NCBI GenBank assembly: GCA_963774265.1
Contig: CAVZDU010000002.1
Span: 512,001 to 576,000, forward strand
Source: an uncultured Chloroflexia bacterium
GTDB lineage: Bacteria; Chloroflexota; Anaerolineae; CG2-30-64-16
Direction of reading: 5' to 3'
DNA: 64,000 bases
Below the pieces are notes generated by a model that was not told where the DNA came from, searched no databases, and was given only the letters and a program-made list of their open reading frames with translations. Positions 44,647 to 64,000 of the stretch are shown here, in pieces (position 1 is the stretch's first letter; every line of letters starts with the position of its first letter). The translations under genes were made by a program, and so were the position numbers.

Positions 44647-44649
44647 CGC

Positions 44650-45288: not shown

Positions 45289-45325
45289 GCTATATAGAGA
45301 ATTCGCGGGTGGCGGCCTCGGCTGC

Positions 45326-45733
45326 TCAGTGCCCTCCCTGCTGTTCTTCCTCCAACACGAAGGCTTCGTACGCGGTCGCATCCATCAGTCCGGCCAACTC
45401 ATCCGGCCGAGCCGGCCGCAGTTTGGCCAGCCACGCCTGGCCATAGGGGTCCTGGTTGATGAGCTCGGGCCTGGCTCCGAGCGCCTGGTTCACCTCGACC
45501 ACTTCACCGCTGATCGGTGAGTACGCGTCGCCCGACGCCTTTACGGATTCGATCACTGCCATGGAGTCACCCGCAGCAATGGTGGCGCCAACCGCGGGCA
45601 GCTCCACCCACATCACATCAGAGAGCTGCTTCTGGGCATAATCCGACACCCCGACAACCGCCAGTGCGCCGTCAAGCCGCACCCACGCGTGTGTCGGTGA
45701 ATACTTCGCAACCACGTCATACTGATAGCCCAT
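45326..45733 (-). CDS. gcvH: Glycine cleavage H-protein (lipoyl carrier)
   Basis: HAWVR, GVSDYAQ, IESVKA (lipoyl Lys), SPISGEV, INQDPYG.AW. Confidence 0.92.
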   Translation of the reverse strand: MGYQYDVVAKYSPTHAWVRLDGALAVVGVSDYAQKQLSDVMWVELPAVGATIAAGDSMAVIESVKASGDAYSPISGEVVEVNQALGARPELINQDPYGQAWLAKLRPARPDELAGLMDATAYEAFVLEEEQQGGH

Positions 45734-45776
45734 CTTTCCTCCTATGAGCCTTTAAGTTTCGGCGGGATAGCATCCG

Positions 45777-46664
45777 TCACACCGCGCGGCCTGCAGCTCG
45801 CTGGCCGCGATAGTAATTCAGATAGCCCTTGCCTGCCGGATCGGAGCCTGTCAGAAAATCCAACCCGCGGGTGATCCACGGCAGAAGCGGCGTCCGGGGA
45901 TCGATCATCGCCACGTCCAGCCCCCACGAGACCGCGGCCGCGAAGAAGGCCAGGTCCAGGATGCGCGGCTGGGGCATGAGATGGCCGGCGTTGCTGATCC
46001 CCAACAGCGTCGGCACGCCCAGCTCCTCGTGTAAGGCTTTCAGCGTCTCCAGCGTGACGTGCATGCTGTCGGGCGCCACGCTGGTCGGCAGGCAGACCGC
46101 ATCGATGAGGACATCTTCACGCGGGATGCCGTGCGCCTCGGCCGCCTGCACGATCCGCCGGGCCACCATGAGACGCTCCTGCACAGTCTTCGGAACGCCG
46201 CCCTCGTACACCAGTCCCGTGCCGATAGCTGCGCCGTGCCGCGCGATAATGGGCAGCATCGTGCGCAGATTCTCACACTCGCCCGTCACCGAGTTGCAGA
46301 GCGCCTTATGCGGATACACAGCCAGCGCGCAATCCACCGTCTGAGGATCACGGGAGTCGACCGCGATGCACGCGCCGGTCGATGCGTACACAGCCTCGAC
46401 TAGCCGGGGCAACAACTTGCGTTCGAGAGGCGCGAGGTCAGGCGCCATCAACTGAACATTGAACACGGGTAGACCGAGCGCCACGCCATCATGTGCTAGC
46501 CGCACCAGGCTGTCGAAACGCCCTTCCTCTAGCTCCGCCCGTACCTCAGGGCGCTCGCACTCATAGCCGCACTGGTCGTTCACGCAGAGCGTCGCCGCGT
46601 CCGGACCGAAGGGAATCGCGCCTGCGGCGTTCGAGAGCTTGCCGGCCGAGGGATGGCTGGTCAT
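45777..46664 (-). CDS. Pterin-binding methyltransferase (methylcorrinoid:tetrahydrofolate MT2, AcsE/MetH-Fol-like)
   Basis: IAVDS...ALCNSVTGE, LIDAVCLP, LGISN; lacks FolP-type GxLNxTPDSFSD. Confidence 0.75.
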   Translation of the reverse strand: MTSHPSAGKLSNAAGAIPFGPDAATLCVNDQCGYECERPEVRAELEEGRFDSLVRLAHDGVALGLPVFNVQLMAPDLAPLERKLLPRLVEAVYASTGACIAVDSRDPQTVDCALAVYPHKALCNSVTGECENLRTMLPIIARHGAAIGTGLVYEGGVPKTVQERLMVARRIVQAAEAHGIPREDVLIDAVCLPTSVAPDSMHVTLETLKALHEELGVPTLLGISNAGHLMPQPRILDLAFFAAAVSWGLDVAMIDPRTPLLPWITRGLDFLTGSDPAGKGYLNYYRGQRAAGRAV

Positions 46665-46676
46665 GCGTTGTCCCGA

Positions 46677-47783
46677 TCAGATGCTGGCGTCTGCCAGGAG
46701 CGCCTGTGATTTGGCATCGAAGATGCGCAGCCCGGCCACGGGGAAGTCCATCCAGATTGGCGCACCGATCTCCATGCGCACCATCGCGCCGACAATCGCC
46801 TTCACATGAAGGTCGCCGCACATCAATGTCAGCAGCGTTTCCTTGCCGAGCACCTCGGAGATGTAGACCGTAGCGGCAATGGCGCCTGGCGTCCCCGCCG
46901 TCACGACCTGCACATCCTCAGGCCGGATGCCCAACACCACCTCAGCTCCCTCTGGCACGCTCGCAAGCTGCCCGCGCAGCACCTCCGGCACTGTGATCTC
47001 GAAGTGGGGCGAAGCGATCTTCCAATCCTGCTTGTCCAGCTTTCCCGGCAAGAAGTTCATTCCCGGATTGCCGATGAATCCACCCACGAAGGTGTTCTTC
47101 GGGTGAAGGTACACGTCCTCGGGATACCCGATTTGCAGAACCCGACCCCCGCTCATGACCACCAATTGATCTGCCAGCGTCATAGCCTCGGCCTGGTCGT
47201 GCGTCACGTACACTGTCGTCACGCCCAGATCACGCTGCAGCCGCTTCAGCTCCGCACGCATACTCACGCGCAACTTGGCGTCGAGGTTCGACAGCGGCTC
47301 ATCCATCAGGAACACTTCAGGCCGGCGGACAATGGCGCGGCCGATGGCGACACGCTGCATCTGACCGCCCGACAGCTGGCGAGGCAGCCGGTCCAGCAGC
47401 TCCCCGATGCCGAGGATCTCGGCAGTCTCATCCACCCGCCGCCGGATCTCCGGGCGCGGAGTGCGCCGCGCCTCGAGCGGAAACGCGATGTTCTTCCGGA
47501 CGGTCATGTGGGGATAGAGCGCGTAGCTCTGGAACACCATCGCGATGTTGCGATCCCAGGCGGGCACATGCGCCACCTCTTTGTCGCCGATGAAGATTTC
47601 ACCCGCGGTCGGCTCTTCCAGCCCTGCGAGCATCCTCAGCAAGGTTGTCTTGCCGCAGCCTGACGATCCAACCAGGACAGTCAGCTTCTTGTCCAGGAAC
47701 TCCAGGGTGATATCCTCTGCAGCCACCGTGTTGCCGAAGTGTTTCGAGATGTTGCGTACAAGGACTTTGGTCATCCAGGACAC
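46677..47783 (-). CDS. CUT1 sugar ABC transporter ATPase (MalK/UgpC-like)
   Basis: GSSGCGKT, MVFQSYALYPH, LSGGQ, DEPLSNLD, TOBE-like C-terminus. Confidence 0.95.
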   Translation of the reverse strand: MSWMTKVLVRNISKHFGNTVAAEDITLEFLDKKLTVLVGSSGCGKTTLLRMLAGLEEPTAGEIFIGDKEVAHVPAWDRNIAMVFQSYALYPHMTVRKNIAFPLEARRTPRPEIRRRVDETAEILGIGELLDRLPRQLSGGQMQRVAIGRAIVRRPEVFLMDEPLSNLDAKLRVSMRAELKRLQRDLGVTTVYVTHDQAEAMTLADQLVVMSGGRVLQIGYPEDVYLHPKNTFVGGFIGNPGMNFLPGKLDKQDWKIASPHFEITVPEVLRGQLASVPEGAEVVLGIRPEDVQVVTAGTPGAIAATVYISEVLGKETLLTLMCGDLHVKAIVGAMVRMEIGAPIWMDFPVAGLRIFDAKSQALLADASI

Positions 47784-47835
47784 CTTTCTGTCGTCACGTC
47801 AAGCCTCAGGCCAGCCAGGTGAACAAGCAATCGAT

Positions 47836-48687
47836 CTAGTACTTCACCGCGCCTGCGGTGAGGCCGCGGATTACCCAACGCTGGAAAATCAGAACGATCA
47901 CGACCACCGGCAACAGGGCCAGCACAACGCCTGCCGAGATCCAGGTCCATTGTTGGCGGAATGCGAACGAGAAGTTCTGGATCGCCACAGGAATGGTCTG
48001 CACATCTTCGATCCCCAAGGTCACGACGGAAGCAAGCATGAACTCACCGTAGGAACCGATGAACGCGAACATGCCGGCCGCGAACATGCCTGGGAGCGAC
48101 AGCGGAATGATGACGCGGAGAAAGATCTGAAACGGCTTATAACCGTCGACTTTGGCGGCGTCCTCCAGTTCCCAAGGCAGCTCAGCGTAATAGCTGGCCA
48201 GCAGCCACGTCGCCAGGGGCACGCAGTAGAACATGTTCGGTATCACCATGGCCGGCAATGACTTGAGCAGGCCAATCGACTTAAGCAGCACAAACGTGGG
48301 AGCGATCGTCACGACAGGTGGAATCATTGCGCCGAGTTGAAGCAGCACCAGCGACTCTACCTTGTAGCGGAAACGCAGCCGGGCGACCGCGTAGGCGGCA
48401 GTGGACGAGACCACGAGGCACAGCGCCGCAGTTGAGAGCGAAACGATGAAGCTGTTGCGCAACGGGATCAGGAAGCCCAGCTCCAGAATAACCTGCCGGT
48501 ACGCGTCCAGGGTCGGCTCTCGCGGCCAGAGACTGATAGGCTTCAGGTACTCAGTCCCCATGGGCTTTAGGGAGGTGCTGAAGACCCAAAAAAGCGGGAT
48601 CATGCAGAACAGGGTGATCACGATCGTGGCCAGAAGCGAAAGCCCACGGTCGATCGTCTTGTTGTGTCGCTGCAGCCAGTCTTTCAT
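47836..48687 (-). CDS. Sugar ABC transporter permease (MalG-like)
   Basis: ELEDAAKVDG EAA motif; 6 TM segments. Confidence 0.93.
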   Translation of the reverse strand: MKDWLQRHNKTIDRGLSLLATIVITLFCMIPLFWVFSTSLKPMGTEYLKPISLWPREPTLDAYRQVILELGFLIPLRNSFIVSLSTAALCLVVSSTAAYAVARLRFRYKVESLVLLQLGAMIPPVVTIAPTFVLLKSIGLLKSLPAMVIPNMFYCVPLATWLLASYYAELPWELEDAAKVDGYKPFQIFLRVIIPLSLPGMFAAGMFAFIGSYGEFMLASVVTLGIEDVQTIPVAIQNFSFAFRQQWTWISAGVVLALLPVVVIVLIFQRWVIRGLTAGAVKY

Positions 48688-49849
48688 GCGCCTTTAAACC
48701 TCAAGTTCTTGCGGATCCGGCTCACGTAGAAGAAACCGAGGATCAGCACGATCACGAACACCACCATGCCGTAGGCCGAGCCCTGCCCGAACTGAGCGCG
48801 GCTGAAGTAGAATTTGTAGGCGAACGAGCTGAGTGTCTCGGTCGTCACACCGGGACCGCCCTTGGTCAGGCCGTAGATCAGATCGAAGGTGCGAATCGCG
48901 TCCATCGAGCGGAACAGCAGCGCGACGGCGATGGTCGGGGCCAGCAGCGGCAGCGTCAGCCGGCGGAAGCGATAGAAGCCGCGGGCCCCATCCACCTTTG
49001 CCGCATCGTAAATGTCCTGCGGTATGACCGCGAGCCCGCCTATCATCAGGATGGCGATCATAGACGACATCTTCCAGACGTCAGCCAGGATCACGGAGAA
49101 CCTGGCAAGCAGCGGATCGACGAGAAAGAGCGGCACTGACTTGAGAAGGCCCCACTGAACGAGCAGGCTGCCCAGACCCACGTCGGCGTTATAAAACCAC
49201 TTCCAGATTGCCGCTGAAATGATCGGCGGAATGGCCCAGGGGATGATGATCATGGATCGCAAGAAACCGGTCCAGTGTTTCCCCACCCAGAACGTCGCCA
49301 TCGCCATCCCTAGCCCGATCCAAAACTCGAAGAACACGGCCACGACCGTGAAGAGAAACGTCCAGCTCAGCGCGGACAGGAAATTCTTGCTGCGAAACAC
49401 GCTGGCGTAGTTGGCTAATCCAATGAAGGTCTCGGAGGTCCATTTGGTCGTGTGATCCAGTTCGTGAAAGCTATAGATGATAGTCTGCGCAATTTGATAA
49501 TAGTAAAAGAGGATGATGCCGACGACCGCGGGCAGCACGAACAGAAGCGCCAGTTCGGGCTCAGTCAACGTGATTCGGCGGAAGCCTCCCAGCCCGAAGC
49601 CAAGCGCCAGGCTTCCAACGATCGCCACGACGGCAGGCACAATGGCAAGCGCCGGCTGCACCACGAACATCAATGCCGCGACTATATACATCGCGCCCAC
49701 CGCTACGATCGCAGATACCGCCAGATTCGACCGCGGCCGCTCACGAGCACCCTTGCGCGCGCGAGCATGACCATTCCGAGGAAAAGGAGGCCCACGATCA
49801 AGACGTAGAAAAGCAGTATGCGAGCTACCGCCGTGAATGTGTTGCTCAA
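48684..49849 (-). CDS. Sugar ABC transporter permease (MalF-like) with extra N-terminal TM segments (frameshift near 5' end)
   Basis: FIGLANY, IPWAIP, IYDAAKVDGA. Confidence 0.9.
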
Positions 49850-49887
49850 AGCATCGACCTTTCCGCTGTCTTAGCAAAAACGGCTCT

Positions 49888-49919
49888 GAGGGCGGAAGGC
49901 GCTCTGGCCTTCCGCCCTC
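49888..49919 (-). terminator. 13-bp stem-loop between the SBP and permease genes (partial terminator or stabiliser)
   Basis: gagggcggaaggc-gctctg-gccttccgccctc; minus strand continues agagccgttttt. Confidence 0.6.
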
Positions 49920-49931
49920 GAGCAGAGCTAC

Positions 49932-51353
49932 CTATTTGGCCAAGGCGTCGATCTGTTCGCAGGCATCATCCAGCGCAGTCTGAGCCGGCTTGAGGCCGGT
50001 CAGGGCGGCATGGATTTCCTCGGACAGAATCGATGTGATATCAGCGAACTTGGGAGACGGAATGGGCGGGATTGCCGTGTCCGCCACCTTCTGAATCAGC
50101 GGCATGTTCGGGTTGTTCTTGATGACGTCTGGGTCTGAGTAGACGTCCATGTGCGCCTGCACCGGGCCCTGCGACAGGTTGAATGCCTTCTGGACCGGGA
50201 AGTCGAACATCACCTCGAGCACCTTCGCGGCCGCTTCCGGGTTGTCCGAGAACTTGTTGATGGAGAAGCCCCAGCCCTCGAAGAAACCCGCGCCCTTGCC
50301 TGGCACGGTGGCCGGCATGGGGATGAAGCCCCACTTGTCGACGATCTTCGACTGCTTCGGGTCATTCAGCCAGAACATCATGTCCTGGCGTCCGGTGTGG
50401 AAGACCGCCTCGCCGCTGACGAAGCGCACCTGCGACTCCTCTTCCTTCCAGGTCAGGGCCTCTTTGGGGGTGATGCCCTTGTCAAACAGGCTCTTCATGA
50501 AGGTGAGCGCGGCCAGGCCCTTCTCGTCGTTCATCGCGCACTTGCCGTCTGCATCGAAGTACGTACCGCCGTAGCCGTTCAGGAACTCGACCCAGCGGTT
50601 GACGAGGACCTGATCCTTCAGCGCGGGCCAGGTCCAGCCGCTCATGCCCGGGTTTGCCTTCATGAGCGTCTTCGCGGCAGCGACCAGTTCGTCGTAGGTC
50701 TCGGGAGGCTTGATGCCGGCCGCTTCGAGCAGGTCTTTGCGATAGTACAGCCCGCCGATGCCGCCCCACCAGGGCCCCAGGGCCAGCAGCTTCCCATCGG
50801 CCGTGAAGGCTTCCAGGTAAGACGGGTTGAGCTTCGCAAGGATGTCTGGGTTGATCAGGTCGTTGAGCGGCATGAGCCAGCCGGCCTGCAGCGAACTCCG
50901 GCAGCCAGTAGAGGCCCATGCCGATCAGGTCGGTCGTGCCGTCCTCAGCCTGGAACCAGGCGAGGTAGTTGTCGCGCCAGGGACCCGCCTCGTACGGCAT
51001 GATGTTGAGCTGAACGTCGATGTTGGGGTACTTCTTGGCGACTTCTTCCCGGATGGCATCAATCGGGGGGCTGGCCGGCCCAAAGGTCTTCTCGAAGTAG
51101 CCGTTGTACGCGATCGTCACGATTTCCTTCTCCACAGGGACCTCGACGGTGACAACCTTCTCGACCTCCTTCACGACCTCTTTGGGAACCTCGACCGTCT
51201 GAATAACGGTCTTCTCGACTTGCTTCTGAACTCGACCACCTGGGTCACGACCTTCTCCACCACCTGGGGAGTCGGTGCGGCGCAAGAGGTCAGCAAGGGC
51301 AGGACGATCATCATCGCGACCAGGACTAGCCGGAAAGTGCTCTTCTTTGACAT
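49932..51353 (-). CDS. Lipoprotein extracellular sugar-binding protein (frameshifted)
   Basis: Lipobox LTSC; VEKVVT/VKEVEKVVTVE repeats; LYYRKDLL, PETYDEL, GWGFSIN. Confidence 0.88.
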
Positions 51354-51487
51354 GTTAGCTCCTCCCTGAAGCTGATCCTTGAAGGACTCAGACTGGCGTA
51401 ACAAGCTTCGGATCTGCCGGAATGCGATGTCTTGGCAGGGGTTCCCTCCTCTCTCTTACCCGGGCGATAGGGCGTGCGGCCTAACCC

Positions 51488-52462
51488 TCATTCCCAGAAA
51501 TTGTGCGGCCAGGCATGCGCCTCCAGCGCAGCCAGGTCGCTGTCGGGCAGCGGCCCCCGGTCGGAGGCGGCTACGTTCTCGCGCGCATGATGTGGTTTGC
51601 GCATGCCAGTAACCACCGTCGTGACGGCCGGGTGGCTCAGGCAGAACCGCAGTGCGGCCTGGGCGAGCGTGTCGCCCTCCTCGCGGAGCAGGAATTTGAG
51701 CCGCTCTGCCCGCTCCGCCACCTCGCGCCGGCGATCGCCGGAGAAGTAGAAATCCAGGAAGCTTCCCTCGGGGAACGTCGTTTCGGGCGTGATCTTGCCG
51801 GTCAACGCGCCTTCGTCGAGCGGGGATTTGACGATGATGCCGACTTGTCTCTTCAAGCGCCAGCGGGAACAGCCCCTGCTCCGGTGCTTGCTCCCAGATG
51901 TTGTACGTGACCTCACAGGCGTCGATCAAGCCGGTGGCGATGGCCTCGTGCGCCATAGTCGGGCTCCAGCGGATAGTTCAGCGACAGGCCGAACGCGGCC
52001 ACTTTCCCTTGCTGCTTCAGTTGCAGAAAGGCCTCTTTCCATTCATCCTGGCCGGCCCATTCGTCCAGCCAGACGTGCAGCAGCTGCAGGTCCAGGCACT
52101 CGACGCCGAGCCGCTTGAGGCTCTTCTCGGTGGACTCGATGATCCAGGATTTCGGAAACACCTCGGCAAGCGGTGTGCCAGGCGCGGCCGGCCACTTGAA
52201 GTTCATCGGATTGACCTTGGTGGAAACGTAGATGCGCCCAGGCCAGCGAGCCACGGCCTGCCCCACGAGCTCTTCGCTCAGGCCATCGCCATAGTTGGGC
52301 GCAGTGTCAACGAAATTGACGCCCAGACTCGAAGGCCGCCCGCATGGACGCCAGCGACTCCTCATTATCGGCCCCGGCCCACCAGGCCCCACCGATGCCC
52401 CAGGCTCCGAACCCAATCTCAGAAACCTGAAAGCCCGTCTTGCCAAGCTGTCGATAACGCAT
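51488..52462 (-). CDS. Aldo/keto reductase (frameshifted)
   Basis: MRYRQLGKTG..VSEIGFGAWG, DTAPNYG.G.SE, SLKRL...DL.LLH. Confidence 0.88.
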
Positions 52463-52514
52463 AGGTTATGCTCCTTATTGCAGTGAAGGATTGTCTGGAA
52501 CGATGCCAGTCTGA

Positions 52515-53970
52515 TCAGCCCGACGTGCGCTGCGCAAAATAGTCGCGCGCTTCGTCGAGAATACGGTCCAGGTCCGCATCTTGAGCCGGCAGTCGTGAAT
52601 GCAGTGCTCCGGCGCCGCCAAGATCTCGGCCAGCTTCGTGCGAGCATGGTCGAGCGCGGTCTTTTTGCCGCCCTCCAACCATTCGGGATAAGAAAGTGAA
52701 TCGGCCGTTGCCGGGATGAACTGCTCTTTGCGCCACCATTTCCGCGTGTGCGGCCGGCTCAGATAGTGACCTGGAATCGGACCGACGGCCTGGATCAGCT
52801 CCACGGCAAGAGCATCCTGGCTCATTTCCTCGCCCGATGCGAAGCGGCCAACCATGCCCGCGATATCGTCATCAAGAATGGCCTGCACAGGGTGGGCCGA
52901 CAGCTCACTCGAGACGCCCAGGTGGAGCAGCATCGAGTTCACACCGGAGAGTGCCGACAAGATTGCGGCGATCCCCTTTTCATAGCCCGCCTGGAACTCG
53001 ATGCCCTTGGCGCTGACATAGCCCGGGCTGCCGTTGCTGAGCGGGAGGCCGTAATGGCTCCACAACTGGTTGAAGATGGCATTGCTGAGCGATGCGCCGA
53101 TCTGGCCGAAGGCCGGCGAACCGGTCCGCATGTTGAGCGGCGCGGAGAAGTGGCCGATCAGCATGCGGTGTCCCGCATGCAAGCACTGGACCAGCACCAC
53201 CATTGCCAGATGCTCCGCGCGTGCTCACGATCACGGAACCGGGCACGGTCGCCGGACCGGTGCCGCCCATCATCGCGCCATCCACCGTGGTCAGCGCGTA
53301 GCCGGCTTCGACAATGCGCCTTGCCGAGGTGATGGCCCCGCTGCCCCAGGTCAGCGGCGGAGAAGAGCCGATGGTCCCGACGATCTCGTGCCCGAGCGCC
53401 TGCGCCATCTGAAAGGTGAAGAGCTCCGCGTCATTGGAGCAGGCGGTCATCTGGTGCTTATCGGAATATTGCATGTGCAGGGCGACGCCCGCAGGGATGG
53501 CCAGGACGTCCGGCATGTCGTCAAAGCCGAAGTAAGGATAGCATCCCAAGTGATCGAGGTGCGGCAAGGCCTGCAGCACCCGAATGCAGTCGATGTACTC
53601 ACGCCGGGTGGGACGGCGCGGCTCCAACGTGTCGAGGTCAATGGTCTGCATGCCGGAACTGTGCGAGAAGTAGAACCGGTCGCCCCCGAGGACCAGGTCG
53701 TTCGCCGGGTTCGGCGCGGCCACGGAGAAAGTCCGGGGCGCCTGCGACAGGCATTCTTCGACCAGCTCGCGAGGAAACCGAACCCGGTCCGCGGCCTCAT
53801 CGACCGCGCAGCCCTGCCGAGCGAGGAAGGCCAGCGCCCAGGGGTCCTCAAACCGGACGCCTGTTTCCCAGAGCACTTGAAGCGTGCCCTCGTGCAGCGC
53901 CTTGATTTGCTCTTCCCCCAACATCTGCAACGATGTCCGCGCGCGTGAAGCCCTGACGAGCCATGCCCAT
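52515..53970 (-). CDS. MttB-superfamily (non-pyrrolysine) corrinoid methyltransferase MT1 (frameshifted)
   Basis: LHEGTLQVL.ETGVRF, VRFPRELVE, MGGTGPATV.G, QAGYEK, VGPIPGHYL..PHT; no in-frame amber codon seen. Confidence 0.85.
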
Positions 53971-53978
53971 CCTTCCTG

Positions 53979-54626: not shown

Positions 54627-54666
54627 GCTTTTCCCCTGCGCTCATCACGGATCCGCGTTAAGCTCG

Positions 54667-55542
54667 TTACTTCATCAATTCCCGCAGGAAATACTTGTGC
54701 TTGCCGAACTGGCCGCCGAAGTTCATGGCCGTCAACGCCAGCACCCCCGGCACCTGCGCGGCTGCAGTCAGCGACAGGCCCATTGCCCTGGCCATGACAC
54801 CGGCACTCGCGCCGAACATCAGCAGGTTCAGCACGGACCCCACGCCTTCCGGAATCTTGGTGTCCTCGATCTGGTCGCGCAGCGATGGGATGTAGTCGAA
54901 TTCGCGGAACACTTGCTCCAGCCCATAGCCCATCGGCGCCACACCGTCCACCGCGGCGATGGCCTCCTTGGCGGCCAGGATCGCGGCCACGGCCGACGCT
55001 GCGTTCACGGCGAAGCAGACGAAGTGGCCATCGGTGCCCTCGACGCTGATCTGGATGGTCTTCTCGTAGGCGAACTCGCCGGTAGTCGTGGGCACCACGC
55101 ACATGACATGGCCGGCCTCGGTGCGCTCCGTATCCTTTTCAGACCACCGCTCCTTGGACATCTCGAACTTGTCATGGAGGTTGACGCGTCACGGTCTGCA
55201 CGCCAGGGATCGCAGCGTCGTAGATCGTCACCGTCGGCACCAGGGAGGCCAGGGCCACGCGCAGCTCGAGCTCCTTCAGCAGATCTTCCCGGCTGGCCGG
55301 GACGTGCGCCATTGAGACAAAGACGCCGGGGCGATGGTCCGGGGTCTCGTGCGGGAAAGGCGGCGCGCTCGATCCCGGCAGTTGAACCTGGAGCCGATCA
55401 TGCTTGACCCGCCTGCGCCGGCAAACTGATTGGCCGCGCCCAGGGCCAGCTCCGCAGTCATGGCGGTGATCAGGACACGGGATACTTCCAGCGTCCAGGC
55501 TTCTGCAAAGGTGTCGTAGACTTCAACCGCATTACCGTTCAT
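54667..55542 (-). CDS. Divergent formylmethanofuran:H4MPT formyltransferase (Ftr)-like protein (frameshifted)
   Basis: N-terminal VEVYDTFAEA...RVLITA and AGIER; C-terminal PGVLALTAMNFGGQFGKHKYFLREL, resembling the Ftr end GV.KISAGNYGGKLG...L.DL. Confidence 0.78.
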
Positions 55543-55561
55543 CAGAATCTCCTTGCGTGAT

Positions 55562-56580
55562 TTATGCGTCGTGAACGACCTGAACCTTCAGGCCCTCTTG
55601 CCGGCGCGCGATCTCAAAACCATCCTGCACCTGTTCCAGCGCGAAGCGATGCGAGATCAAAGGCTTGACCTGCACGACGCCGGCGCGGATCAGGGCCAGC
55701 GCATCCTCGAATTGCGCGATCGTCGAGTCATAGCTGCCGACGAGTCGCAGCTCTTTGTAGTGGATCAGGTCGAGGTCCAGGGTCACCTCAGGCACCAGGG
55801 TCGCGGCAAAGTAGAGCACATGGCCGCGCCGTGCGGCGAGGTCGATGGACTGCTTGAGCACAGCGACGCTGCCCGCGGCGTTGACGACCACGTCCGCGCC
55901 GCGGCCGTCCGAGCACCTCACGCACCGCGGCGAGGACGTCCTGTTTCTGCGAATTGAGCACCAGGTTGACGCCCAGACTGCCCGGCGACAGCCAGCCGGT
56001 GGTCCAGCAGGCCAATCATGACGGTGTACGCGCCGCGATGGCGAAGCATCTGCGCGTGCATCAGGCCGATCGGCCCGTCGCCGATGACCACGGCGACCGC
56101 GCCCGGCGCGACATCAACCTTGGACTGGCCGTTCACGACGCAGGCCAGGGGCTCCGCGAAGGCGGCTTCCTCTAGGGAGACGCCGGCGGGCACCTTCACC
56201 AGGTTGGCGAAGGGATAGGCCGCATACTGGGCCAGGCCGCCCGAGAAATAGCCTGCGTTCTGGCAAGCGCTCCACATGCCGCGGCGGCAGTAGTAGCAGT
56301 AGCCGCAGGGCAGCCGGCCATCGGCCACCACAGCGTCGCCCGCCTTGACGGTGGGCACCTCCGCGCCGGCCTCTACCACCGTCCCAGACAGCTCGTGGCC
56401 CATGCGGAACGGATAGGTGATCGTCCAGCCGCGGGGCTGCTTGCCGACATAGGCATCCACATCGGTGCCGCACACGCCGCAGTAGGCGACCTTCAGGAGA
56501 ACCTCTCGCGGGCCGATCTGGGGCATCGGCATCTCATCGACCTGCATGACCAGCGGCCCGTGAAGCCGTGCGACTTTCAT
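55562..56580 (-). CDS. Zn-dependent (MDR) polyol/alcohol dehydrogenase (frameshift ~55960)
   Basis: CGTD, GHE, CGYCYYC, EPLAC, GDGPIG. Confidence 0.9.
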
Positions 56581-56589
56581 AGCAACTCC

Positions 56590-57977
56590 TTATAGCGCAT
56601 TGAAGTAGGCGGGAAGCTCGATCCCGGCCTCCGTAAAGCGGGCCTGTGCGTATGCAACCGCCTCGCCGACCCACGCTTCTTCGTCAAGGGTTCGTATCCG
56701 ACGATCTTCCATCACGATCTGCCCGTCGCAGATCACGGTGGTCACGTCATGGCTCGAGGCGCAGTAGACCAGGCTGTTCTCGATGCGATTGATGGGCCGC
56801 ATGTGCGTGCCGGTCAGATCGACCAGGATCAGATCGGCCTTCTTCCCGCTGACCAGCGAGCCGATCTCCCGATCCATGCCCAGGGCCTCGGCGCCGCCCA
56901 GGGTCGCCATACGCAGTGTGACGGCCGCGGGCAACACGCGCGGATCCATGGTGGTCACTTTCTGCAGGAACGCTGCAGTCCGCATCGCCTCGAACATGTC
57001 CATGTTGTCGTTGACCGCACAGCTATCGGTGCCCAGCGAAACGACAACCCCGGCATCCAGGAATTTGCGGATCGGCGCGACCCCATCGGCGATCTTCATG
57101 TTGCACTCAGGGTTATGCGCCACCTTCGTGCCGGTCCTGGCGAAGAGCTCGATATCCTCGTCCGAGAGCCAGATGCAGTGCGCGCCGAGCACGTCGGGTC
57201 CCAGCAGGCCGAGGTTGTGCAGGTGCTGGGTGGGGGTGGCACCGAACAGTGACTGGATGTTGTGCCATTCGTACTCGGTCTCGGCGATGTGGATGTGGAC
57301 CGCGACGCCCTCACGGTCCGCGCGGCGGCGCACCTCGCGAATCAGATCGACGCTGCATGAGTTCGGGCAGGCCAGCCCATAGCGGAATGTGACGTCGGCC
57401 GCCAGCCGAGCCGGCGCACCGTTCTCGCAGCGCATCGGCCAGCTTGTACAGGGTCGCATGGGGCAGCAGCACGTCGGGCGAGATCCACTGGTCCGTCATG
57501 GTGAGCGTGTGGACCACCCGGATGCCCGCCTGCTCGAACACATCAACCACGCAAGGATCAGTCGCCCACTCCATATTCAGGATCGTCGTGATCCCGGCCC
57601 GGATGGCGTCGACGCAGCCGAGCCGCGACGAGTGCAATTGCGCAGCATGCGTCCCGCTCAGGTAGTCCTGCACCGCGACCTTGATCCTCGGCACCGACAC
57701 CTGGTCGATCCAGTCCAGCAGGGACAGGTCGTCACGCGTGCCCTTGTGGAAGTTCTGCAGGAAGTGGTGATGGGTGTCGATCAGGCCCGGCATGACTGCC
57801 TGCCTGCGCCGTCGATCACCTTGCGGGCCGGTAAGCGCGGCTCGACCTCGGCGCGCGGGCCGACGGCCACGATGCGCCCCGCGATCGATTGCGACTGCGC
57901 CGTGTTCGATCAGCGGCTGCGCTGTCGTCCAGGGTGACAACCAGCCGGCCCAGGACCAGCAGATCGATCTCAGTCAA
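56590..57977 (-). CDS. Metal-dependent amidohydrolase (MTA/SAH-deaminase/AtzA-like) (frameshifted)
   Basis: MPGLIDTHHH, HIHIAET, AHC, HNPECN, LGTD, GKKADL. Confidence 0.88.
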
Positions 57978-57978
57978 T

Positions 57979-59141
57979 CTACAGCGCCTCGTTCAGCAGG
58001 TCGACGATGTCGGTCACGGTCAGATTCAAGCCGGCCTTGGCCACCGATCGCTTCAGGTTGACGACGCATGTGGGGCAGGAGGAAACCACTTGCGTCTGCG
58101 CCGGCCGCGGCCGCCTGTTGGAGCCGTTCGACCGCCGACATCGCCCGCAAGATCGGTGAACGCGCTGAGCACGCCACCGCCCGCGCCGCAGCACAGGGCG
58201 TGCTCCCGGTTCGAGTACATCTCGACCAGCTCGACGCCCGGCACCGAGCTGATCAGCTCGCGCGGCTCATCGTAGATGCCCATGTGGCGGCCCATGATGC
58301 ACGGATCGTGGTAGGTCACCTTGCGGTTGATCGCATGGAGCTTGCCGGCGGCCAGGCTCGGGAAGAATTCGTGGGTGTGCTGGAAGTTCAAGCCCCGAAT
58401 GAATGCCCAAATCCTCCGGATAGACTCCCGTGAAGGCCCGGTAGCAGCCGGCGCAGGTCGTCAGCACGACGTCCGGCTGGTAGGCCTTGATGCGTTGGCC
58501 AGCGTGTATTCGGCTGCCTGCCTCATGGCGTCCATCTGGCCGATATCGAAGAGCGGATAGCCGCAGCACGCGTCCTCTTCCAGCACCGCGTAGTTCACGC
58601 CCAGCTTGTCGAGCAGTTCCGTCGGTCGACTTGCCGATGCTCTTGATCTTGCGCACGGTCTGGCAGCCCGGGAAGTACAGCACGTCGACCTTGTGCGGGC
58701 GTGACCGCCACCTGTGATGGGACGCGCCGCGCGGGGCCGAAGATGCTGTGATGCTGCACGGTGTTGTCTGCCACCGCGGCCTGGTTCTCCGTCATGATGC
58801 CGGCATCCACCAGGTCCGCACGCAGGGCGGTCCAGATCTCGAAGCAGCGGCATGCCCACCGGGCAATGCTCCCCACAGCTTCCACACAGGGAGCACTGGG
58901 CCAGGTGCTCCAGGAAGGTCTCATCGATATCCACTTCCCCCTCGAGGAGCTGCTGCGCCATATTCACACGCCCGCGGGCGTACTGGGTATCAAACGCCTC
59001 GGTGTAGGGATAGGTCGGGCAAACCCAGTCAACGCCTTTCCAATTCCACACGCGGCAGAAACCGCAGCGGCTGCAATCAAATACTTCCTTGCGCAATGCC
59101 TCGAGGCGGGAGGCAGGGATTCTGCTTGTCGCCATCTTCAT
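57979..59141 (-). CDS. Fe-S/CCG-domain oxidoreductase subunit (GlcF/HdrD-like) (frameshifted)
   Basis: CSRCGFC..CP, CSLCGSC..HCP, YFPGC, CCG, YHDPC..GR, CCGAGGG. Confidence 0.88.
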
Positions 59142-59177
59142 CTCCTTATATCGACGTTATTGCTGCGGCAGTAAGCG

Positions 59178-60531
59178 CTATAACCCGATGACACCCGGGT
59201 TCATGATGTTGTTCGGGTCGAGCATGGCCTTGATGGCCTTCTGGAGCCGCCAGTAGCCGGTGTTCCTGCATGTGCTTCTGCAGATAGGGTCCCCACTGCC
59301 GGCCCTTGGAGTAGGGCGCTCCGCCCAGTTCCAGCGCCCGATCCATCATCTCCTGCATGGCATTCCAGACCTTGGCACGCTCGGCCATGTCGTCCGGGTG
59401 GTGGAACATCAGGCTGACATGCTCGGAACCGTGCGGCTCCGGGAACATCTGCTGAACATAGACCTTGATGTCATGGCGGTCCATGATCCGCTTCATTTCG
59501 TAGGTTGCATCGACCAGCTTATCGAAGGGCAGGAAGTAGTTCACCGCACCTGCGATGCCCTCTTTGAACTCCTCGCCGGTCAGGAACCAGCGGTTGTTCC
59601 AGAACTTCTGCACCCCTTCGGTGCCCAGGCACTCCATGTCCGGGATGCCTGGCGATCAGGCCGCGGATCTTCTTGACCCGCATTTCCACGTCGTCCTCGT
59701 CCCCTTCGACGTTATAGTGGAAGATGATCAGCTCGCCCGGCTTGATGACGGGCACCGAGATGTAGCAGACCAGGTTGTTGATTGCCAGATCGCGGAACAA
59801 GGCTGACGGCCGAAGCCAGGTCCGCGGTCTTGTAGACTTCCAGGAAGAATTTCTCAGGGAAGGGGAAGATGCGCAGCGTACACTCGGTCATGATGCCGAA
59901 CGCGCCTTCAGCGCCGATGAACAGCCCCGTCAGGTCGGCCCCGAGCCCGTAACGGAAGAACACGTCGGAGTTGGATTGGCGGCCGAGCCGGTGCAGACGA
60001 TGTCACCGTTCGGCAGCACCATCTTGAGGCCCAGCGCCTGATCGCCGGAGCTGATGTACTTGATGTTGCCCCAACCGACGCCGGGCCGTGAGATGTGGGC
60101 GCCCGGCGTGCCGGCCATGGCGCCCGAAGGCGCAATGCCGATCTTCCAGCCGCGCTGCTCCAGCGTGTTCATCAGGCTGACGTAGGTGATGCCGGACTGG
60201 CAGGTTACGGTCCCATTGGTCTCATCGATCTCGAGGATCTCGTTCATGCGCAGCATCTCGATCGTGATGCCGCCGCCTGCCGGGGGTGTGGAGCCGGCTT
60301 CCTGGGCCGAGCCGCCCCCGCGTGGCACGATCGGCACCTTGTACTCGTTGGCGATCTTGACGATCTCAGACAACTTCTTCCGTGGTCTTCGGGCCGCACG
60401 ACCAGGTTCGGCATGCTCGGTGGCATGGTGCCGAAATCCCTGGAGTACGCCTTGAGCACAAACGGCTTGTCTGAGACATATTGCGGACCGACGACGTCGG
60501 CCAGGCGCTTGAGGATTGCCCCGTAATCCAT
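59178..60531 (-). CDS. FAD-linked oxidoreductase (GlcD/D-2-hydroxyacid dehydrogenase-like) (frameshifted)
   Basis: PIVPRGGGS, VLPNGDIV, DLTGLFIGAEGAFGIMTE, IKAMLDPNNIMNPG. Confidence 0.88.
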
Positions 60532-60563
60532 TAGTTCATCACTCCTCGTGTTGCGGCTGCAGC

Positions 60564-61333
60564 TCAGTCGCTGAGCCGCCTGGTGGAAAAGACGACTTCG
60601 TGCAGCCCTCGTACGACGCTTTCGGGATCGCTGGCTTGCCAGACGCGGCGGCCGAATGCCACACCCGCCGCGCCTGCGGCGAATCGCATCCCGCGCCACG
60701 TCCAGCGTGTTATCAGCGCCGCCCTCGCTCGGCCCGCCCGCCACGATGATGGGCACGCTGGTCGACGCGACGACCTGCTCGAATGCTGGCCAGAGTTGCC
60801 GCAGTAGTTCGTCTTGACGATGTCGGCGCCGAAGTTCCATGCCGATCCGCGCCGCGTGCGCGATCTGCTCCGGCGCGTAGAATTGATCCGGCGGCGGCAT
60901 CATTTCGGCCAGCACCGGCATGCCCAGCCCGCCGCACTGCTCGATCAGTTCGCCGAGCCACTGCATGAGGTAGGGCTCGCCACCTCGACCAAAGAAGATC
61001 GATACGGCCACCGCGTCAGCATCCAGGCGCAGCGCGGTGGTTGCTGTGACGGCAGGGATCTCCTGCCGGGCTTCAGCACTCAGGCCTGCGCTGACACTGA
61101 CCCGCAGAACAATCCCGACATCAAGTGGAATCAGATCCGACACCTGGCGAAGAAAACCCGGCGTGAGCAATAGGGCCGTGGCGCCTCCGGCGATGGCACT
61201 GGCGACGATCTGGCGTGGGCGATCGATCCCGGCAGACGGGTCCCAGCCAGGGACCATGATCCAGTGGAACCATGAGGCATCGCTTCTCCGGACCAGCCAG
61301 GAGTCTCCGCAATCGTCTTTGCTTTCCGGTCAT
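60564..61333 (-). CDS. Class I (DhnA/LsrF/FbaB-type) aldolase (frameshifted)
   Basis: VPLDHG, ADAVAV, ADIVKTNY (Schiff-base Lys), PIIVAGG, FGRRVWQ. Confidence 0.85.
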
Positions 61334-61369
61334 GTGCCATCCTCCTCGAAGCGTGTATTGGGGTGTAAC

Positions 61370-61492
61370 CGCCGGACGTAACGTCCGGGCTACGGCAACG
61401 CCCCGTGAACGGGGCTGACGATGCGTTAGCCGGCTCGGTTAGCCCGCTTCAGCGGGCGCTGCTAGGTAGCCCGGCGACTTTAGCGCCGGGCG
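61370..61492. repeat. BIME/REPIN-like element: two inverted GTAG-foot REP hairpins with internal palindromes
   Basis: Reverse-complement GTAGCCCGGACGTTACGTCCGGC and forward GTAGCCCGGCGACTTTAGCGCCGGG; internal gccccgtgaacggggc and gcccgcttcagcgggc. Confidence 0.7.
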
Positions 61493-63011
61493 GTCTGCCG
61501 TCCGCGGTCATCTCCGGCGGCGCAACCAGCTTCGCCGCAAACTCGCTGAAATGGCGATAGGTGACGTAGCCGGCGTCGTACGTCGACGCCGAGATCGGGC
61601 TGATGCCTGACCCAGTCGGGAGGCTCGAAGGTGCTCTCGAGCGCAGCAGCCATGTCCGCTCCGTCCAGTGCCTGCTGGTACAGCGCAAACAGGACGCGTG
61701 TGACGGTCTCTTCTTCGGTATAGATGGTCGCATCGCGGCCGCAGACATCGGCAATGATCTGCGTCAGGCCAGGGGTTTTGGTCCCCCCGCCCGCCAGCGC
61801 CAGCTCCTCGATGGGCAGGCCCATCTCGCCGTAGATATCGAGTAGATGGCGCAGGCTGTAGGCGATGCCCTCCATCGCTGCCCGCAGCATGTGCCGGCGA
61901 TCATGGGCCAGGCGCAAGCCATAGAACCCCGCGCGGATCTCATCCGACCAATAGGGGCTGCGTTCGCCGGCCAGGTAGGGAAGAAACACCAGTCCATCTG
62001 AGCCAGGCGCCACTTCGAGGGCCGTGTCGGGTCGCCTCCTCGAAGGTGAGCTCAGCCGACTGGCCCCGAAGAACCTGCTGCTAGCATCCAGACCAACGAT
62101 GCGCCCGTGGTCGAGGATACGCCGCCCGCCAGCCGATAGGGCGGCAGGAATGGGTAGACGTACAGGCGATCTCTGGGGATCGTCCGCCTGCTGCTCCGGC
62201 GCCAAGCGCCATGAAGATCATCGATGAACTGCCCAGCGAGCAGACGACACGCCCGGGGCGTGGCGGGGCTCCGCCGATCAGCGCCGCCACATCGCCCACA
62301 CCGTTGATGATGGCCGGGCCTGGGATTGAGGCCGAGTTCGCCGGCGACGTCGGGCCGCGGCAGTACCGACAACTGCGCATCGGCCGGCAGAATGGGCGGC
62401 AGAGACGCTCGGCGTCCAGACCGGTCAGCGCAAGCCGGTCCAACGCCCAGGTCTTGGTGCGACCAATCCAGCAACGCTGCTCCGCCACACTCGGTCAAAT
62501 CCGTGCCCACCAGCCCGGAAAGCCGGAAGCGCAGATAATCCTTTGGCCACAGGATGGTGCGCACACCTGCGCCAGAATTTCGGGACGATGACGGCTCAGC
62601 CAGAGCAGCTTGGGGAGGGTGTACGTGCTGTTGAGCTGATAGGGCGGCAGTCCCAGGCGCTTCTGCAGCTCCTCTGTCTCCCCGGCTGCTCTGCGATCGA
62701 GCCACAGAATCGTCGGCGGCACCACCCGCTGCGCGGCGTCGAGCAGCACGGCGGAATGCATCTGACCGGTGAATGCGACCGCATCGACCTGATCCAGGCC
62801 CAAGCCACCCTGCTGCAAGTTCTCGCGTCGCTTCCCAGAACGCGGTCCACCACGCCTCAGGGTCGCCCTCGGCCCACCCCGGCTGAGGCGTCGTGTACGA
62901 ATAGCGTCGCACTGCGACCTTGAGCACTTGCCCCGCGTGGTCGTACAGGACCGCCTTGAGCGAGGATGTGCCGACATCGGCCGCCAGCAAAGCAGGGGTG
63001 TGCGGGGCCAT
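61449..63011 (-). CDS. FGGY-family carbohydrate kinase (xylulokinase-like) (frameshifted)
   Basis: DVGTSSLKA, TGQMHS, ILWLDRR, PKLLWL, LPYLAGERSP, EGIAY, GGG. Confidence 0.88.
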
Positions 63012-64000
63012 CAGACAGCCTCGCCGCCGACCTCGACCATGACCTTCATGCCTTCCGCGATTCAGCACGAGCTCGAAGCCTTCATGCAGGCGCTCGAGCG
63101 GCAACAGGTGGGATATCAGCGGTTCCACCAACACCTGGCCCGACTCGATGTAGCGAAGCGCCTCGTGCATGTCCTCAGGCGTCGAGTCAGCCGATCCGGT
63201 CAGGATCAGCTCCTTGTAGTGGATCAGGTTGGGGTCGATGTTCAGCGGCGCAACGGGATACATGCCGGCGAAGATATTCAGCCGCCCGCCCGCGGCCAGA
63301 CACTCGGCCGCCTCGAGCACGAGCGGGGAGGACTCCCACGGCCACCACGGCTGCGTCGACGCCTGCACCGCCGGTGGCCGCCATGACTGCTTCCCGCAGG
63401 TTGGCTGCCTGGCTGTTGATCACCACATCCGCGCCCAGCTTGCTGGCCAGGCTCAGCCGATCGTCGATCAAATCGGCAACGATCACCCGCGCGCCATAGC
63501 GTCTGGCCACCTGCATGTGCATCACGCCGATCGGGCCGGCGCCGATCACCAGCTCGGTCTCGACCGGCGCCAGGTGCAGCAGTCTCTGACCGCGCACGAC
63601 GCAGGCCAGCGGTTCAGTGAACGCGGCGGCCCGGTAGGAGGTGGTGTCTTCGCGGATCGGGAAGATGTTGCGCTGCGGGAGGACCGCATACTCTTCATAG
63701 GCGCCGTTCGGAAAGCGGGGGTGCTGGCAGCGGTTCGAGCGGCCGGTGCGGCAGGGGTCACAGGCGCCGCATTTGACGATGAAATCCGCCATGACTCGCT
63801 GGCCCGGCTTGAGATGCTTGACCTCACTGCCCACTTCCACGATACGGCCAGCTGCCTCATGGCCCATCACTCGGGGCAGCGGAACGTTCTTCTTACCCGC
63901 ATAAACCCGCACGTCCCAGGGGCAGATGCCCACGTAGGCAATCTGCACCAGGACCTCATCCGGCCCGACAGCCGGGCCGGGGTATCTCGCGCTGCTCGAA
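63011..64000 (-). CDS. Zn-dependent polyol dehydrogenase (5' end outside window, frameshifted)
   Basis: GICPWD, GHE, CGACDPC, EPLAC, GAGPIG; ATGA overlap with the kinase. Confidence 0.88.

Follow-up and report, generated by a model that had tools for sequence, protein, structure and literature searches.

Corrinoid-dependent methyl-transfer systems and a reductive route for purines are the closest described relatives of the locus examined here. In the choline pathway of the anaerobe Eubacterium limosum, an MttB-superfamily methyltransferase, a corrinoid protein, a cobalamin:tetrahydrofolate (THF) methyltransferase and a kinase are encoded together (MthB/MthC/MthA/MthK), with MthK preparing the substrate for MthB (PMC12155760). 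MtgB, which contains no pyrrolysine, binds glycine betaine through residues Y97, R312, H348 and F356 (PDB 9yce/2qne; PMC13080624), and MtqB, a non-pyrrolysine (non-Pyl) member of the MtmB family that is paired with the corrinoid protein MtqC, demethylates tetramethylammonium and choline (PMC13044021). For purines, the reductive uric-acid pathway draws on the families XdhD-YgfM, YgfK/UacX, SsnA, HyuA, YgeW/UacY, YgeY, YgeX and YqeA (PMC12507026). For caffeine in anoxic sediment, a 2026 preprint describes the organisms and pathways of anaerobic demethylation as largely unknown (10.64898/2026.01.06.697959). Here we describe a 17-gene operon at positions 45326 to 64000 of a 64,000-nucleotide stretch (the window, G000:C2:512001-576000) from an uncultured Chloroflexia bacterium, whose genome assembly comprises 5.5 Mb in 10 contigs and is 84% complete.

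The cluster is a real, conserved and undescribed catabolic system built of known enzyme families, and the one-carbon (C1) route to folate proposed for it in a conserved anaerobe operon appears not to have been described before. A preliminary description of the window knew of no pathway with this combination of genes, and we found none in the literature: MttB or MtmB proteins together with an FGGY kinase, aldolase, amidohydrolase or Ftr-like protein (Ftr being formylmethanofuran--tetrahydromethanopterin N-formyltransferase), and likewise corrinoid-dependent demethylation of methylated purines, were not found described in a search outside which most subscription-journal papers lay. We tentatively read the operon as serving the catabolism of an N-methylated purine-type glycoside, whose methyl groups would pass via corrinoid proteins to THF and whose sugar chain would be split. 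The most likely substrate would be a methylated purine nucleoside or a close analogue, that is, a sugar- or polyol-bearing nitrogen heterocycle.

Gene order and conservation of the operon

The minus strand carries the whole set of 17 genes, which runs from 64000 down to 45326. By Pfam, the order begins with ADH_N/ADH_zinc_N, FGGY_N/C, DeoC, FAD_binding_4, Fer4_8 with CCG, Amidohydro_1, a second ADH_N/ADH_zinc_N and FTR with FTR_C, and continues with B12-binding (and B12-binding_2), MTTB, Aldo_ket_red, SBP_bac_1, two BPD_transp_1, ABC_tran with OB_MalK and TOBE_2, Pterin_bind and GCV_H. The expected families were matched by 26 of the 33 translated frame pieces, which bears out the co-oriented order first read from the sequence; the seven pieces lacking a Pfam match are frame fragments of the FGGY, GlcD, GlcF and solute-binding protein (SBP) genes. 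The tight spacing noted earlier also held, with intergenic gaps of 4-60 nt for most pairs and wider ones (~110-146 nt) between FGGY and aldolase, MttB and the aldo/keto reductase (AKR), and AKR and SBP. Of the several ATGA overlaps reported alongside it, one was verified, at 48684-48687 between permeases 1 and 2, and the others are obscured by frame breaks.

The proposed terminator after gcvH was recovered as a hairpin on the minus strand at 45250-45290 followed by UUUCGUU (fold dG -26.9 kcal/mol, z -5.07), with none of 200 shuffles folding equally well; it was seen by folding and was not listed by a simple terminator scan. The operon starts beyond the window, since its first gene extends past the window end. 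A GntR/UTRA regulator gene lies just upstream on the same strand (L019:109-858), and because it precedes the operon, it probably controls it.

Scanning one genome per species (GTDB) with an alignment of the Ftr-like protein gave pattern matches in 87 stretches. Confirmation as syntenic loci was obtained for 19, assigned by record title: 16 in Chloroflexota, two in Spirochaetota and one in Candidatus Formimonas warabiya DCMF (Bacillota; hereafter DCMF), whose cluster occupies NZ_CP017634.1:3227694-3248554. Five of the 19 coincide with places also retrieved from relatives, and the closest related loci are titled Anaerolineae, "Chloroflexia" or Caldilineales. Counted within the DNA stretches of these loci, AKR is present in 18, the TRZ/ATZ amidohydrolase and the second Zn-dependent dehydrogenase in 17 each, the orthologous MttB in 16 and FGGY in 15, the remaining four being cut by contig ends. 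Aldolase, GlcD and GlcF occur together in 12 loci, a thirteenth (L039) having only a piece of GlcF at its contig start, and a non-Pyl MtmB homologue occurs in eight. MttB orthologues in the cluster are 51-88% identical, as against ~30% for paralogues. In an even sample of the class (401 genomes), the Ftr-like gene (E<=1e-60) was found in seven genomes and the MttB orthologue (E<=1e-100) in nine, with both in six; owing to kinship, these six co-occurrences count as fewer than six independent cases, since the genomes with the Ftr-like gene fall into just five genera. The preliminary description was to be refuted if the sugar and C1 genes were never found together in other genomes. They are syntenic in 19 loci of three phyla, and both marker genes recur in the class sample, so that this refutation clearly fails.

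Frame breaks in the assembly

Frame breaks affect 10 of the 17 genes (the first and second Zn-dependent dehydrogenases, FGGY, GlcD, GlcF, amidohydrolase, Ftr, MttB, AKR and SBP) and number more than 12 within the window. A sequencing-run search returned matches to the window in two soil-metagenome DNA runs, at small shares, and listed no RNA run. Short-read contigs from these runs, 95-98% alike, lack one base at 53221, the junction of the two MttB frames, and lack seven bases across GlcF. The frameshift correction called for in the preliminary description was carried out in silico for two genes: removing the extra base lengthened the longest MttB open frame from 332 to 500 codons, and removing seven bases lengthened that of GlcF from 231 to 391 codons. 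No frame breaks occur in the orthologues examined from L027, which carries the full cluster, or from L022, a partial cluster from amidohydrolase to gcvH, whereas genes outside the operon in the same assembly (among them XDH large subunit, carbamoyltransferase and YgeY) are broken too. Given the bases missing from short-read contigs, the restored frames, the unbroken orthologues and the broken flanking genes, the frame breaks are almost certainly assembly insertions, and the operon is very probably intact in the organism. Runs of at least four identical bases occur in only one of 11 frame-break stretches, and the breaks are therefore not simple homopolymer errors.

Purine-pathway homologues beside the operon

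Upstream of the operon and divergent from it lies a purine-degradation-like operon on the plus strand (L019:1054-13777, that is, G000:C2:577054-589777), several genes of which are frame-broken. It encodes, in order, a YgfM-like FAD subunit, a 2Fe-2S subunit, an XDH Mo subunit, a corrinoid protein, MtmB, a UacX/PreA-like reductase, AFOR, a carbamoyltransferase, a YgeY-family hydrolase and an SsnA-like amidohydrolase, and is followed by Pst genes. A relative of the same genus (L020) has all of these together with HyuA and a Bmp ABC system. Purine-pathway homologues also lie within six of the 19 loci (L023, L024, L029, L030, L031 and L032): AFOR, HyuA and/or SsnA-like, and UacX genes are found downstream of AKR in L029, L030 and L031, and YgfM, 2Fe-2S and XDH genes downstream of AKR in L032. 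An XDH-family gene just past L035, the DCMF locus, converges on the cluster. The MtmB orthologue is 70-72% identical between hosts; it stands in the main operon in some and in the purine operon in the window's genus.

These neighbours resemble the reductive uric-acid/2,8-dioxopurine pathway (PMC12507026; bioRxiv 10.1101/2025.04.24.650524) in comprising XDH with FAD and 2Fe-2S subunits, a DHO_dh-type reductase and an SsnA-like protein, together with dihydropyrimidinase/HyuA, a YgeY-family hydrolase and a carbamoyltransferase. Six family types of that pathway adjoin the operon, with the SsnA-like protein scoring 238 bits against a cut-off of 444. They differ from it in having a corrinoid protein and MtmB inserted among them, and the published clusters include no counterpart of the 17-gene operon. 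It is mainly because two different gene orders share the same purine-pathway neighbours that we propose a methylated purine-type compound. The operon may be one part of a larger gene island for an N-methylated heterocycle, a view we hold with comparable reserve.

The corrinoid methyl-transfer set

Three genes make up the methyl-transfer set, all on the minus strand. The corrinoid protein (53979..54626; B12-binding, 7.3e-25, and B12-binding_2) is intact and carries the motif DIHDIG (DxHxxG). The adjacent MttB gene (52475..53924), with its extra base at 53221, matches MTTB on both pieces (2.9e-31 and 8.8e-35), and a MeTr-like methyl-corrinoid:THF methyltransferase (MT2) is encoded at 45777..46664 (Pterin_bind, 2.4e-13), its orthologue matching the methyl-THF:corrinoid methyltransferase domain NF005719 at 5.3e-48. 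Since no internal stop occurs in the MttB and MtmB orthologues, both are non-Pyl forms. A full-length MTTB protein lacking an in-frame stop, a neighbouring DxHxxG corrinoid protein and MT2 together have the make-up of a non-Pyl MttB system.

The best solved relative of the MttB orthologue (L022:3855-5294) is MtgB (1.4e-52, full length), and neither protein contains pyrrolysine. The glycine betaine-binding residues Y97, R312, H348 and F356 of MtgB align with S, S, L and L, respectively, in this orthologue. Because all four are replaced, the MttB protein here, judged by its alignment, is not a glycine betaine enzyme (PMC13080624). Its pocket is probably larger than that of MtgB, the smaller residues being suited to a bulkier substrate. 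The set also recalls the Mth system of E. limosum, which likewise combines an MttB-superfamily protein, a corrinoid protein, a cobalamin:THF methyltransferase and a kinase in an anaerobe (PMC12155760). In contrast to that system, the kinase here is an FGGY, xylulokinase-like protein, about ten more enzymes are encoded (including the aldolase, GlcD/F, amidohydrolase, two Zn-dependent dehydrogenases, AKR and the Ftr-like protein), and there is a further methyltransferase, one belonging to the MtmB family. Like MtqB/MtqC (PMC13044021), the latter is a non-Pyl MtmB-family protein paired with a corrinoid protein, the two being likened by family only; unlike them, it is bacterial and is encoded in the operon or inside the purine-degradation-like operon.

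The last gene of the operon encodes a GcvH paralogue (45326..45733, minus strand; GCV_H, 3.3e-40) that keeps the lipoyl-lysine motif ESVKA. It is an extra paralogue, as the housekeeping copy beside GcvP is another gene (C2:265030-266765); further GcvH copies exist. In DCMF, a second GlcD/GlcF pair adjoins a GcvH, an arrangement that hints at a link between lipoyl protein and CCG protein.

Two side observations come from other hosts. A URO-D/MtaA-CmuA-like methyltransferase is encoded beside the cluster in four of them (L009:11352-12509, L034:6290-7282, L035:19810-20799 and L036:11958-12956); it could be yet another kind of methyltransferase, the third, perhaps one acting on O- or S-methyl groups. 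In the DNA that precedes the DCMF cluster (L042:1-2777), a sensor histidine kinase with B12-binding and PocR domains and a response regulator are encoded, just upstream of the AraC and GntR regulators of that cluster.

A separate Ftr-like subfamily

The Ftr-like gene (54667..55542, minus strand, two frame breaks) encodes a protein of a separate subfamily that retains the two-lobe FTR and FTR_C architecture at full length, in the window pieces as in the intact orthologue. The orthologue aligns over its full length with 1m5h, 1m5s and 1ftr at E-values of 3.5e-42 to about 1e-48, the value for Archaeoglobus fulgidus Ftr (1m5h) being 3.5e-42. In FhcD of methylotrophs, Glu252 stabilises the oxyanion and is described as "conserved and protonated" (PMC6926001); by count in the 1ftr alignment, it corresponds to Glu245 of Methanopyrus kandleri Ftr. 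This column holds Asn in the window protein and in all 56 of 56 subfamily sequences, while 10 of the 12 aligned homologues from outside the subfamily retain Glu. A loop of ~15 residues (GGIxxSGSKVGS...) is missing from the subfamily, in which His172 is invariant and Cys175 at least 90% conserved at positions where canonical Ftr has Gly-Asn.

Compared with the Ftr of methanogens and FhcD (1ftr, 1m5h, 1m5s, 6s6y; PMC6926001), both lobes are thus homologous and the motifs DTFAEA and ETPDGRPG are kept, whereas the catalytic Glu (Ftr 245, FhcD 252) has given way to Asn, the loop is gone and His172/Cys175 are new; the gene is also, in the loci compared here, always embedded in the catabolic cluster. 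Among 1.84 billion representatives, 503 matched at E<=1e-3, only two of them closely (E-150 and E-115), with the next at E-61. In 90% clusters, 225 proteins matched at E<=1e-40; identities of 56-94% were recorded for the top 120, and those named among them are called formylmethanofuran--tetrahydromethanopterin N-formyltransferase or "hypothetical protein". This database name is probably wrong for the subfamily.

The window genome holds a single FTR gene. No Mch (PF02289) was found in it, at 84% completeness, or in G042, G043 and G044, and no MfnB (PF04476) in the five hosts tested for it (G000, G001, G042, G043 and G044). Mch is present in two hosts, G041 and G045, of which G041 also has a separate canonical Ftr. 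As the catalytic Glu is absent and Mch and MfnB were not found in the hosts so tested, the protein is, by sequence, a member of a narrow subfamily outside Ftr proper. The preliminary description called it Ftr-like; a role in formyl or acyl transfer is a reasonable inference only, standing apart from the family assignment. The subfamily lends itself to testing how bacteria in which no methanopterin genes were detected have reused the scaffold of an archaeal C1 enzyme, and its misnaming could inflate counts of methanopterin-dependent C1 metabolism in Chloroflexota.

DCMF additionally carries a canonical island of methanofuran-/methanopterin-type C1 genes (L043, G041:C1:866000-878000), with FhcA-like, Ftr, FhcC-like, Mch, ATP-grasp, CitG-like and 4-HFC-P synthase (MfnB) genes, separate from the Ftr-like gene of its cluster.

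Sugar-type enzymes and transporters

The remaining enzymes, again on the minus strand, are mostly of types met in sugar and polyol metabolism. The first Zn-dependent dehydrogenase (63012..64000; ADH_N 1.2e-30, ADH_zinc_N 3.5e-16), with its 5' end past the window and a break near 63190-63420, best matches the NCBIfam models of scyllo-inosose 3-dehydrogenase and L-threonine 3-dehydrogenase, both below cut-off. The second (55562..56580; ADH_N 1.8e-27, ADH_zinc_N; one frame break) has an orthologue closest to L-threonine 3-dehydrogenase and IolM, again below cut-offs. The FGGY carbohydrate kinase (61480..63011; FGGY_N, FGGY_C) is split into at least four frame pieces; an intact orthologue (L015:14624-16150) scored 313.8 bits against the cut-off of 380.25 for the xylulokinase model TIGR01312 (XylB), and the protein is, on this comparison, an FGGY family member and predicted kinase that is xylulokinase-like only. 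The class I aldolase of the DeoC/LacD family, DhnA type (60560..61333, 3' end approximate; PF01791, 1.9e-20), has an orthologue closest to the ADH-synthase subfamily (224 bits, cut-off 241), LsrF and archaeal class I fructose-bisphosphate aldolase.

LsrK and LsrF are paired in autoinducer-2 processing. An FGGY kinase adjoins a DhnA-type PF01791 protein here as well, but the kinase scores 92.9 bits to autoinducer-2 kinase and the aldolase 150.8 to LsrF thiolase (cut-offs 528 and 297), and neither LsrG nor an Lsr transporter is encoded in this operon.

A GlcD-like FAD-linked 2-hydroxyacid dehydrogenase (59146..60531; FAD_binding_4, 6.9e-27), whose orthologue also carries FAD-oxidase_C, and a GlcF/HdrD-like Fe-S protein with CCG domains (57982..59141; Fer4_8, CCG) follow, each in four frame pieces. 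With GlcD at 145 bits against 568, GlcF at 71 against 333 and no GlcE, the pair falls short of the glycolate oxidase GlcDEF; to judge from these scores, the labels GlcD-like FAD protein and HdrD/CCG-type Fe-S protein suit it better. The TRZ/ATZ-type, deaminase-like amidohydrolase (56590..57973; Amidohydro_1, 1.6e-48; one frame break) has an orthologue closest to archaeal-type 5'-deoxyadenosine/5'-methylthioadenosine (MTA) deaminases (392 and 363 bits, below cut-offs), its best solved structure being the MTA/S-adenosylhomocysteine deaminase 4f0r (1.5e-60). AKR (51488..52365, start approximate; frame breaks) matches Aldo_ket_red on two pieces. Enzymes handling aldehydes differ by host, being AFOR, an XDH-type enzyme, an iron-type alcohol dehydrogenase (Fe-ADH), or a short-chain dehydrogenase/reductase with a second AKR; this variety fits an aldolase that releases a short aldehyde.

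Uptake genes comprise a family-1 (CUT1) sugar-type SBP (49932..51353; SBP_bac_1, 1.4e-28; one frame break), ABC permease 1 (48684..49691, start uncertain and maybe up to 49877; BPD_transp_1, 2.4e-15), permease 2 (47836..48687; BPD_transp_1, 1.6e-17) and a MalK-type ABC ATPase (46677..47774; ABC_tran 6.9e-34, OB_MalK, TOBE_2), all on the minus strand. The solved structures nearest to the SBP orthologue are MalE3 (6dtq, 1.5e-43), the trehalose/maltose binding protein 1eu8 and SmoF, and there is a faint UgpB-like match (E 3e-4). Across hosts, three transporter types occupy the corresponding place: CUT1, Bmp/PnrA-type and ECF. In L023 and L024, the gene for a binding protein of the Bmp/PnrA type is interposed immediately behind Ftr, and in L036 such a system is found close to the cluster; among solved structures, 3s99 and AtzT (6pi5; atrazine/purine-type) come nearest to this protein. 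In DCMF (L035), an ECF module with a private S-component stands in place of the ABC system; this component has no Pfam or NCBIfam family and no meaningful match in the Protein Data Bank (PDB), and a protein atlas supports the name "ECF S component" (0.97), QueT being no more than a faint lead (0.89). The depth of soil-metagenome contigs rises about 100-fold at window positions 47172-47795 (152 and 289, against ~0-13 in every other bin), because the conserved ABC ATPase core draws contigs of many organisms; the peak is not a copy-number signal.

Proposed function and alternatives

The steps that follow are inferred from what was computed, namely gene content and order, conservation, co-occurrence, intact frames in relatives, and active-site differences in the Ftr-like and MttB proteins. 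The substrate would be taken up by the CUT1 ABC system, for which other hosts would use a Bmp/purine-type ABC system or an ECF importer. MttB and the non-Pyl MtmB of the operon or the neighbouring operon would transfer N-methyl groups to Co(I) of a corrinoid protein, and the MeTr-like MT2 would pass them on to THF. The TRZ/ATZ amidohydrolase may deaminate the ring or hydrolytically open its amidine carbon, and the Ftr-like protein may handle the resulting formamide-type group, possibly transferring the formyl to THF. AKR and a Zn-dependent dehydrogenase would convert the sugar or polyol to a ketose, which the FGGY kinase would phosphorylate and the class I aldolase would cleave to dihydroxyacetone phosphate and a short aldehyde. 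The aldehyde would be oxidised by the AFOR or XDH-type neighbour and the 2-hydroxyacid then by the GlcD/GlcF pair, while the purine ring would be passed to the neighbouring set of reductive uric-acid/2,8-dioxopurine pathway homologues. It had been held earlier that the substrate cannot be read from the sequence, and this was too pessimistic, in that the purine-pathway flanks, the Bmp protein and the ECF importer point to a methylated purine-type compound.

Several observations weigh against this proposal. All MttB members characterised so far, and the single characterised non-Pyl MtmB, act on small quaternary amines (PMC12155760, PMC13044021, PMC13080624), and there is no precedent for a heteroaromatic N-methyl donor. 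Of the purine-pathway homologues, only HyuA of L029 exceeds its NCBIfam cut-off (465 against 393), and neither YgeX nor carbamate kinase turned up in the stretches covered. Five host genomes were searched for genes of nucleoside hydrolases and phosphorylases, and none was found within the cluster or close to it; IU_nuc_hydro occurs in one of these genomes and PNP_UDP_1 in all five, always far from the cluster, so that a nucleoside substrate would depend on housekeeping enzymes. Ribose itself needs no AKR, two Zn-dependent dehydrogenases, FGGY kinase or aldolase, and both spirochaete loci lack the aldolase, GlcD and GlcF. The loss of the catalytic Glu leaves the chemistry suggested for the Ftr-like protein uncertain. 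An Rfam scan at gathering thresholds of the window and four further loci (L019, L034, L035 and L036) returned no match, and no riboswitch or other ligand-reporting RNA element therefore names the ligand.

A substrate that has no purine ring, such as an N-methylated and/or N-formylated amino sugar or aminopolyol whose C1 groups go to a pterin and whose chain is split by dehydrogenase, kinase and aldolase, would suit the sugar-type CUT1 SBP with its relatives MalE3, the trehalose/maltose binding protein and SmoF. The xylulokinase-like FGGY protein, class I aldolase, AKR and two polyol-type Zn-dependent dehydrogenases fit it as well, as do the corrinoid methyl-transfer set and the full-length Ftr homologue. 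It leaves unaccounted for the TRZ/ATZ deaminase-type hydrolases, the Bmp protein inside the operon (L023 and L024), the ECF importer (L035) and the repeated reductive-purine flanks with MtmB and a corrinoid protein placed in that operon; pyridoxal-phosphate enzymes and deacetylases, normal for removal of sugar amines, are absent, and nothing specific points to the N-formylated sugar suggested in the preliminary description. We consider such a substrate rather unlikely. A hydroxylated quaternary amine, that is, a choline-, carnitine- or glycerophosphocholine-like polyol betaine phosphorylated before MttB-type demethylation while the other enzymes degrade its chain, has a precedent in MthK/MthB (PMC12155760) and in the activity of a non-Pyl MtmB on tetramethylammonium and choline (PMC13044021), and MtgB is the nearest solved structure to MttB (1.4e-52), to which the faint UgpB-like match of the SBP may be added. 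This reading is improbable, given that Ser and Leu replace Y97 and F356, the aromatics by which MtgB binds the quaternary amine, that the xylulokinase-like FGGY kinase is unrelated to MthK, which is serine-kinase-related (PMC12155760), and that the amidohydrolase, the Ftr-like protein and the purine-pathway neighbours have no part in it.

It is just as improbable that independent modules (a pentitol/pentulose pathway, a methylamine-type C1 set and purine genes) are merely parked in an accessory island with no common substrate. The gene order is indeed modular, transporter type, MtmB position and presence of aldolase/GlcDF vary by host, and the trait is patchy (seven of the 401 genomes), but the block of amidohydrolase, second Zn-dependent dehydrogenase, Ftr-like protein and AKR is kept together with FGGY across three phyla and adjoins the orthologous MttB, distinct from its paralogues in identity (51-88% against ~30%), in 16 of 19 loci, with tight spacing and a single upstream regulator gene. 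The frame breaks, more than 12 in the window, might suggest a decaying pseudogene array, and the annotation of relatives as formylmethanofuran--tetrahydromethanopterin N-formyltransferase might suggest a marker of methanopterin-dependent C1 oxidation. Both ideas are largely refuted and have very little probability left: the breaks vanish once the bases missing from short-read contigs are removed, the L022 and L027 orthologues are unbroken while flanking genes of the same assembly are broken too, Mch was found neither in the window genome nor in three other hosts and MfnB in none of the five tested, and the catalytic Glu is Asn in all 56 sequences. Methanopterin/flavin side-chain catabolism, mycosporine-like amino acids, O-methyl inositols, MTA/5'-deoxyadenosine sugars and 2'-O-methylribose were also considered and set aside.

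Taken further, the methylated-purine reading would make the island the first corrinoid-dependent pathway by which anaerobes use methylated nucleobases or nucleosides (7-methylguanosine, 1-methyladenosine, methylxanthines), with a repurposed Ftr scaffold; in this extended form we regard it as doubtful. MttB and MtmB would then take the methyl group from a cationic heteroaromatic nitrogen for delivery to THF, the Ftr scaffold, with Glu replaced by Asn and new invariant His and Cys residues, would recover a ring-derived formyl, and the purine, once demethylated, would feed into the reductive 2,8-dioxopurine route. Modified nucleic-acid debris would, if a methylated nucleobase pathway is indeed present, supply Anaerolineae, spirochaetes and acetogens with C1 groups and energy. 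The combination of MttB and MtmB families with catabolic genes of both sugar and purine type points towards a class of substrate that is new, and the hosts are abundant uncultured soil and sediment Anaerolineae as well as an enrichment-culture organism, Ca. Formimonas warabiya. Genes for anaerobic methylpurine N-demethylation are not known so far. The caffeine preprint reports an Anaerolineae genome enriched 8.7-fold with caffeine (10.64898/2026.01.06.697959). In the DCMF metaproteomics study (PMC9768040), terms for the cluster are absent from the main text, and among the supplement matches listed only bins of other organisms appear.

Genes downstream of the operon

Directly downstream of the terminator, genes for dihydroneopterin aldolase (FolB) and a fused HPPK-GTP cyclohydrolase I (FolK-FolE) lie on the minus strand at window positions 43531-45177. 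These are folate/pterin synthesis genes adjoining a folate-dependent C1 operon, and they do not occur at the corresponding position in the same-genus relative examined. Just past them, on the plus strand at 40874-42937, are a transaldolase/FSA-family gene and a Lyase_1 (fumarase/aspartase-type) fragment. Farther away, positions 2000-8400 of the window have a G+C content of 70-72%, compared with ~60-65% elsewhere, and hold an open frame of 2073 codons on the plus strand (2154-8375).

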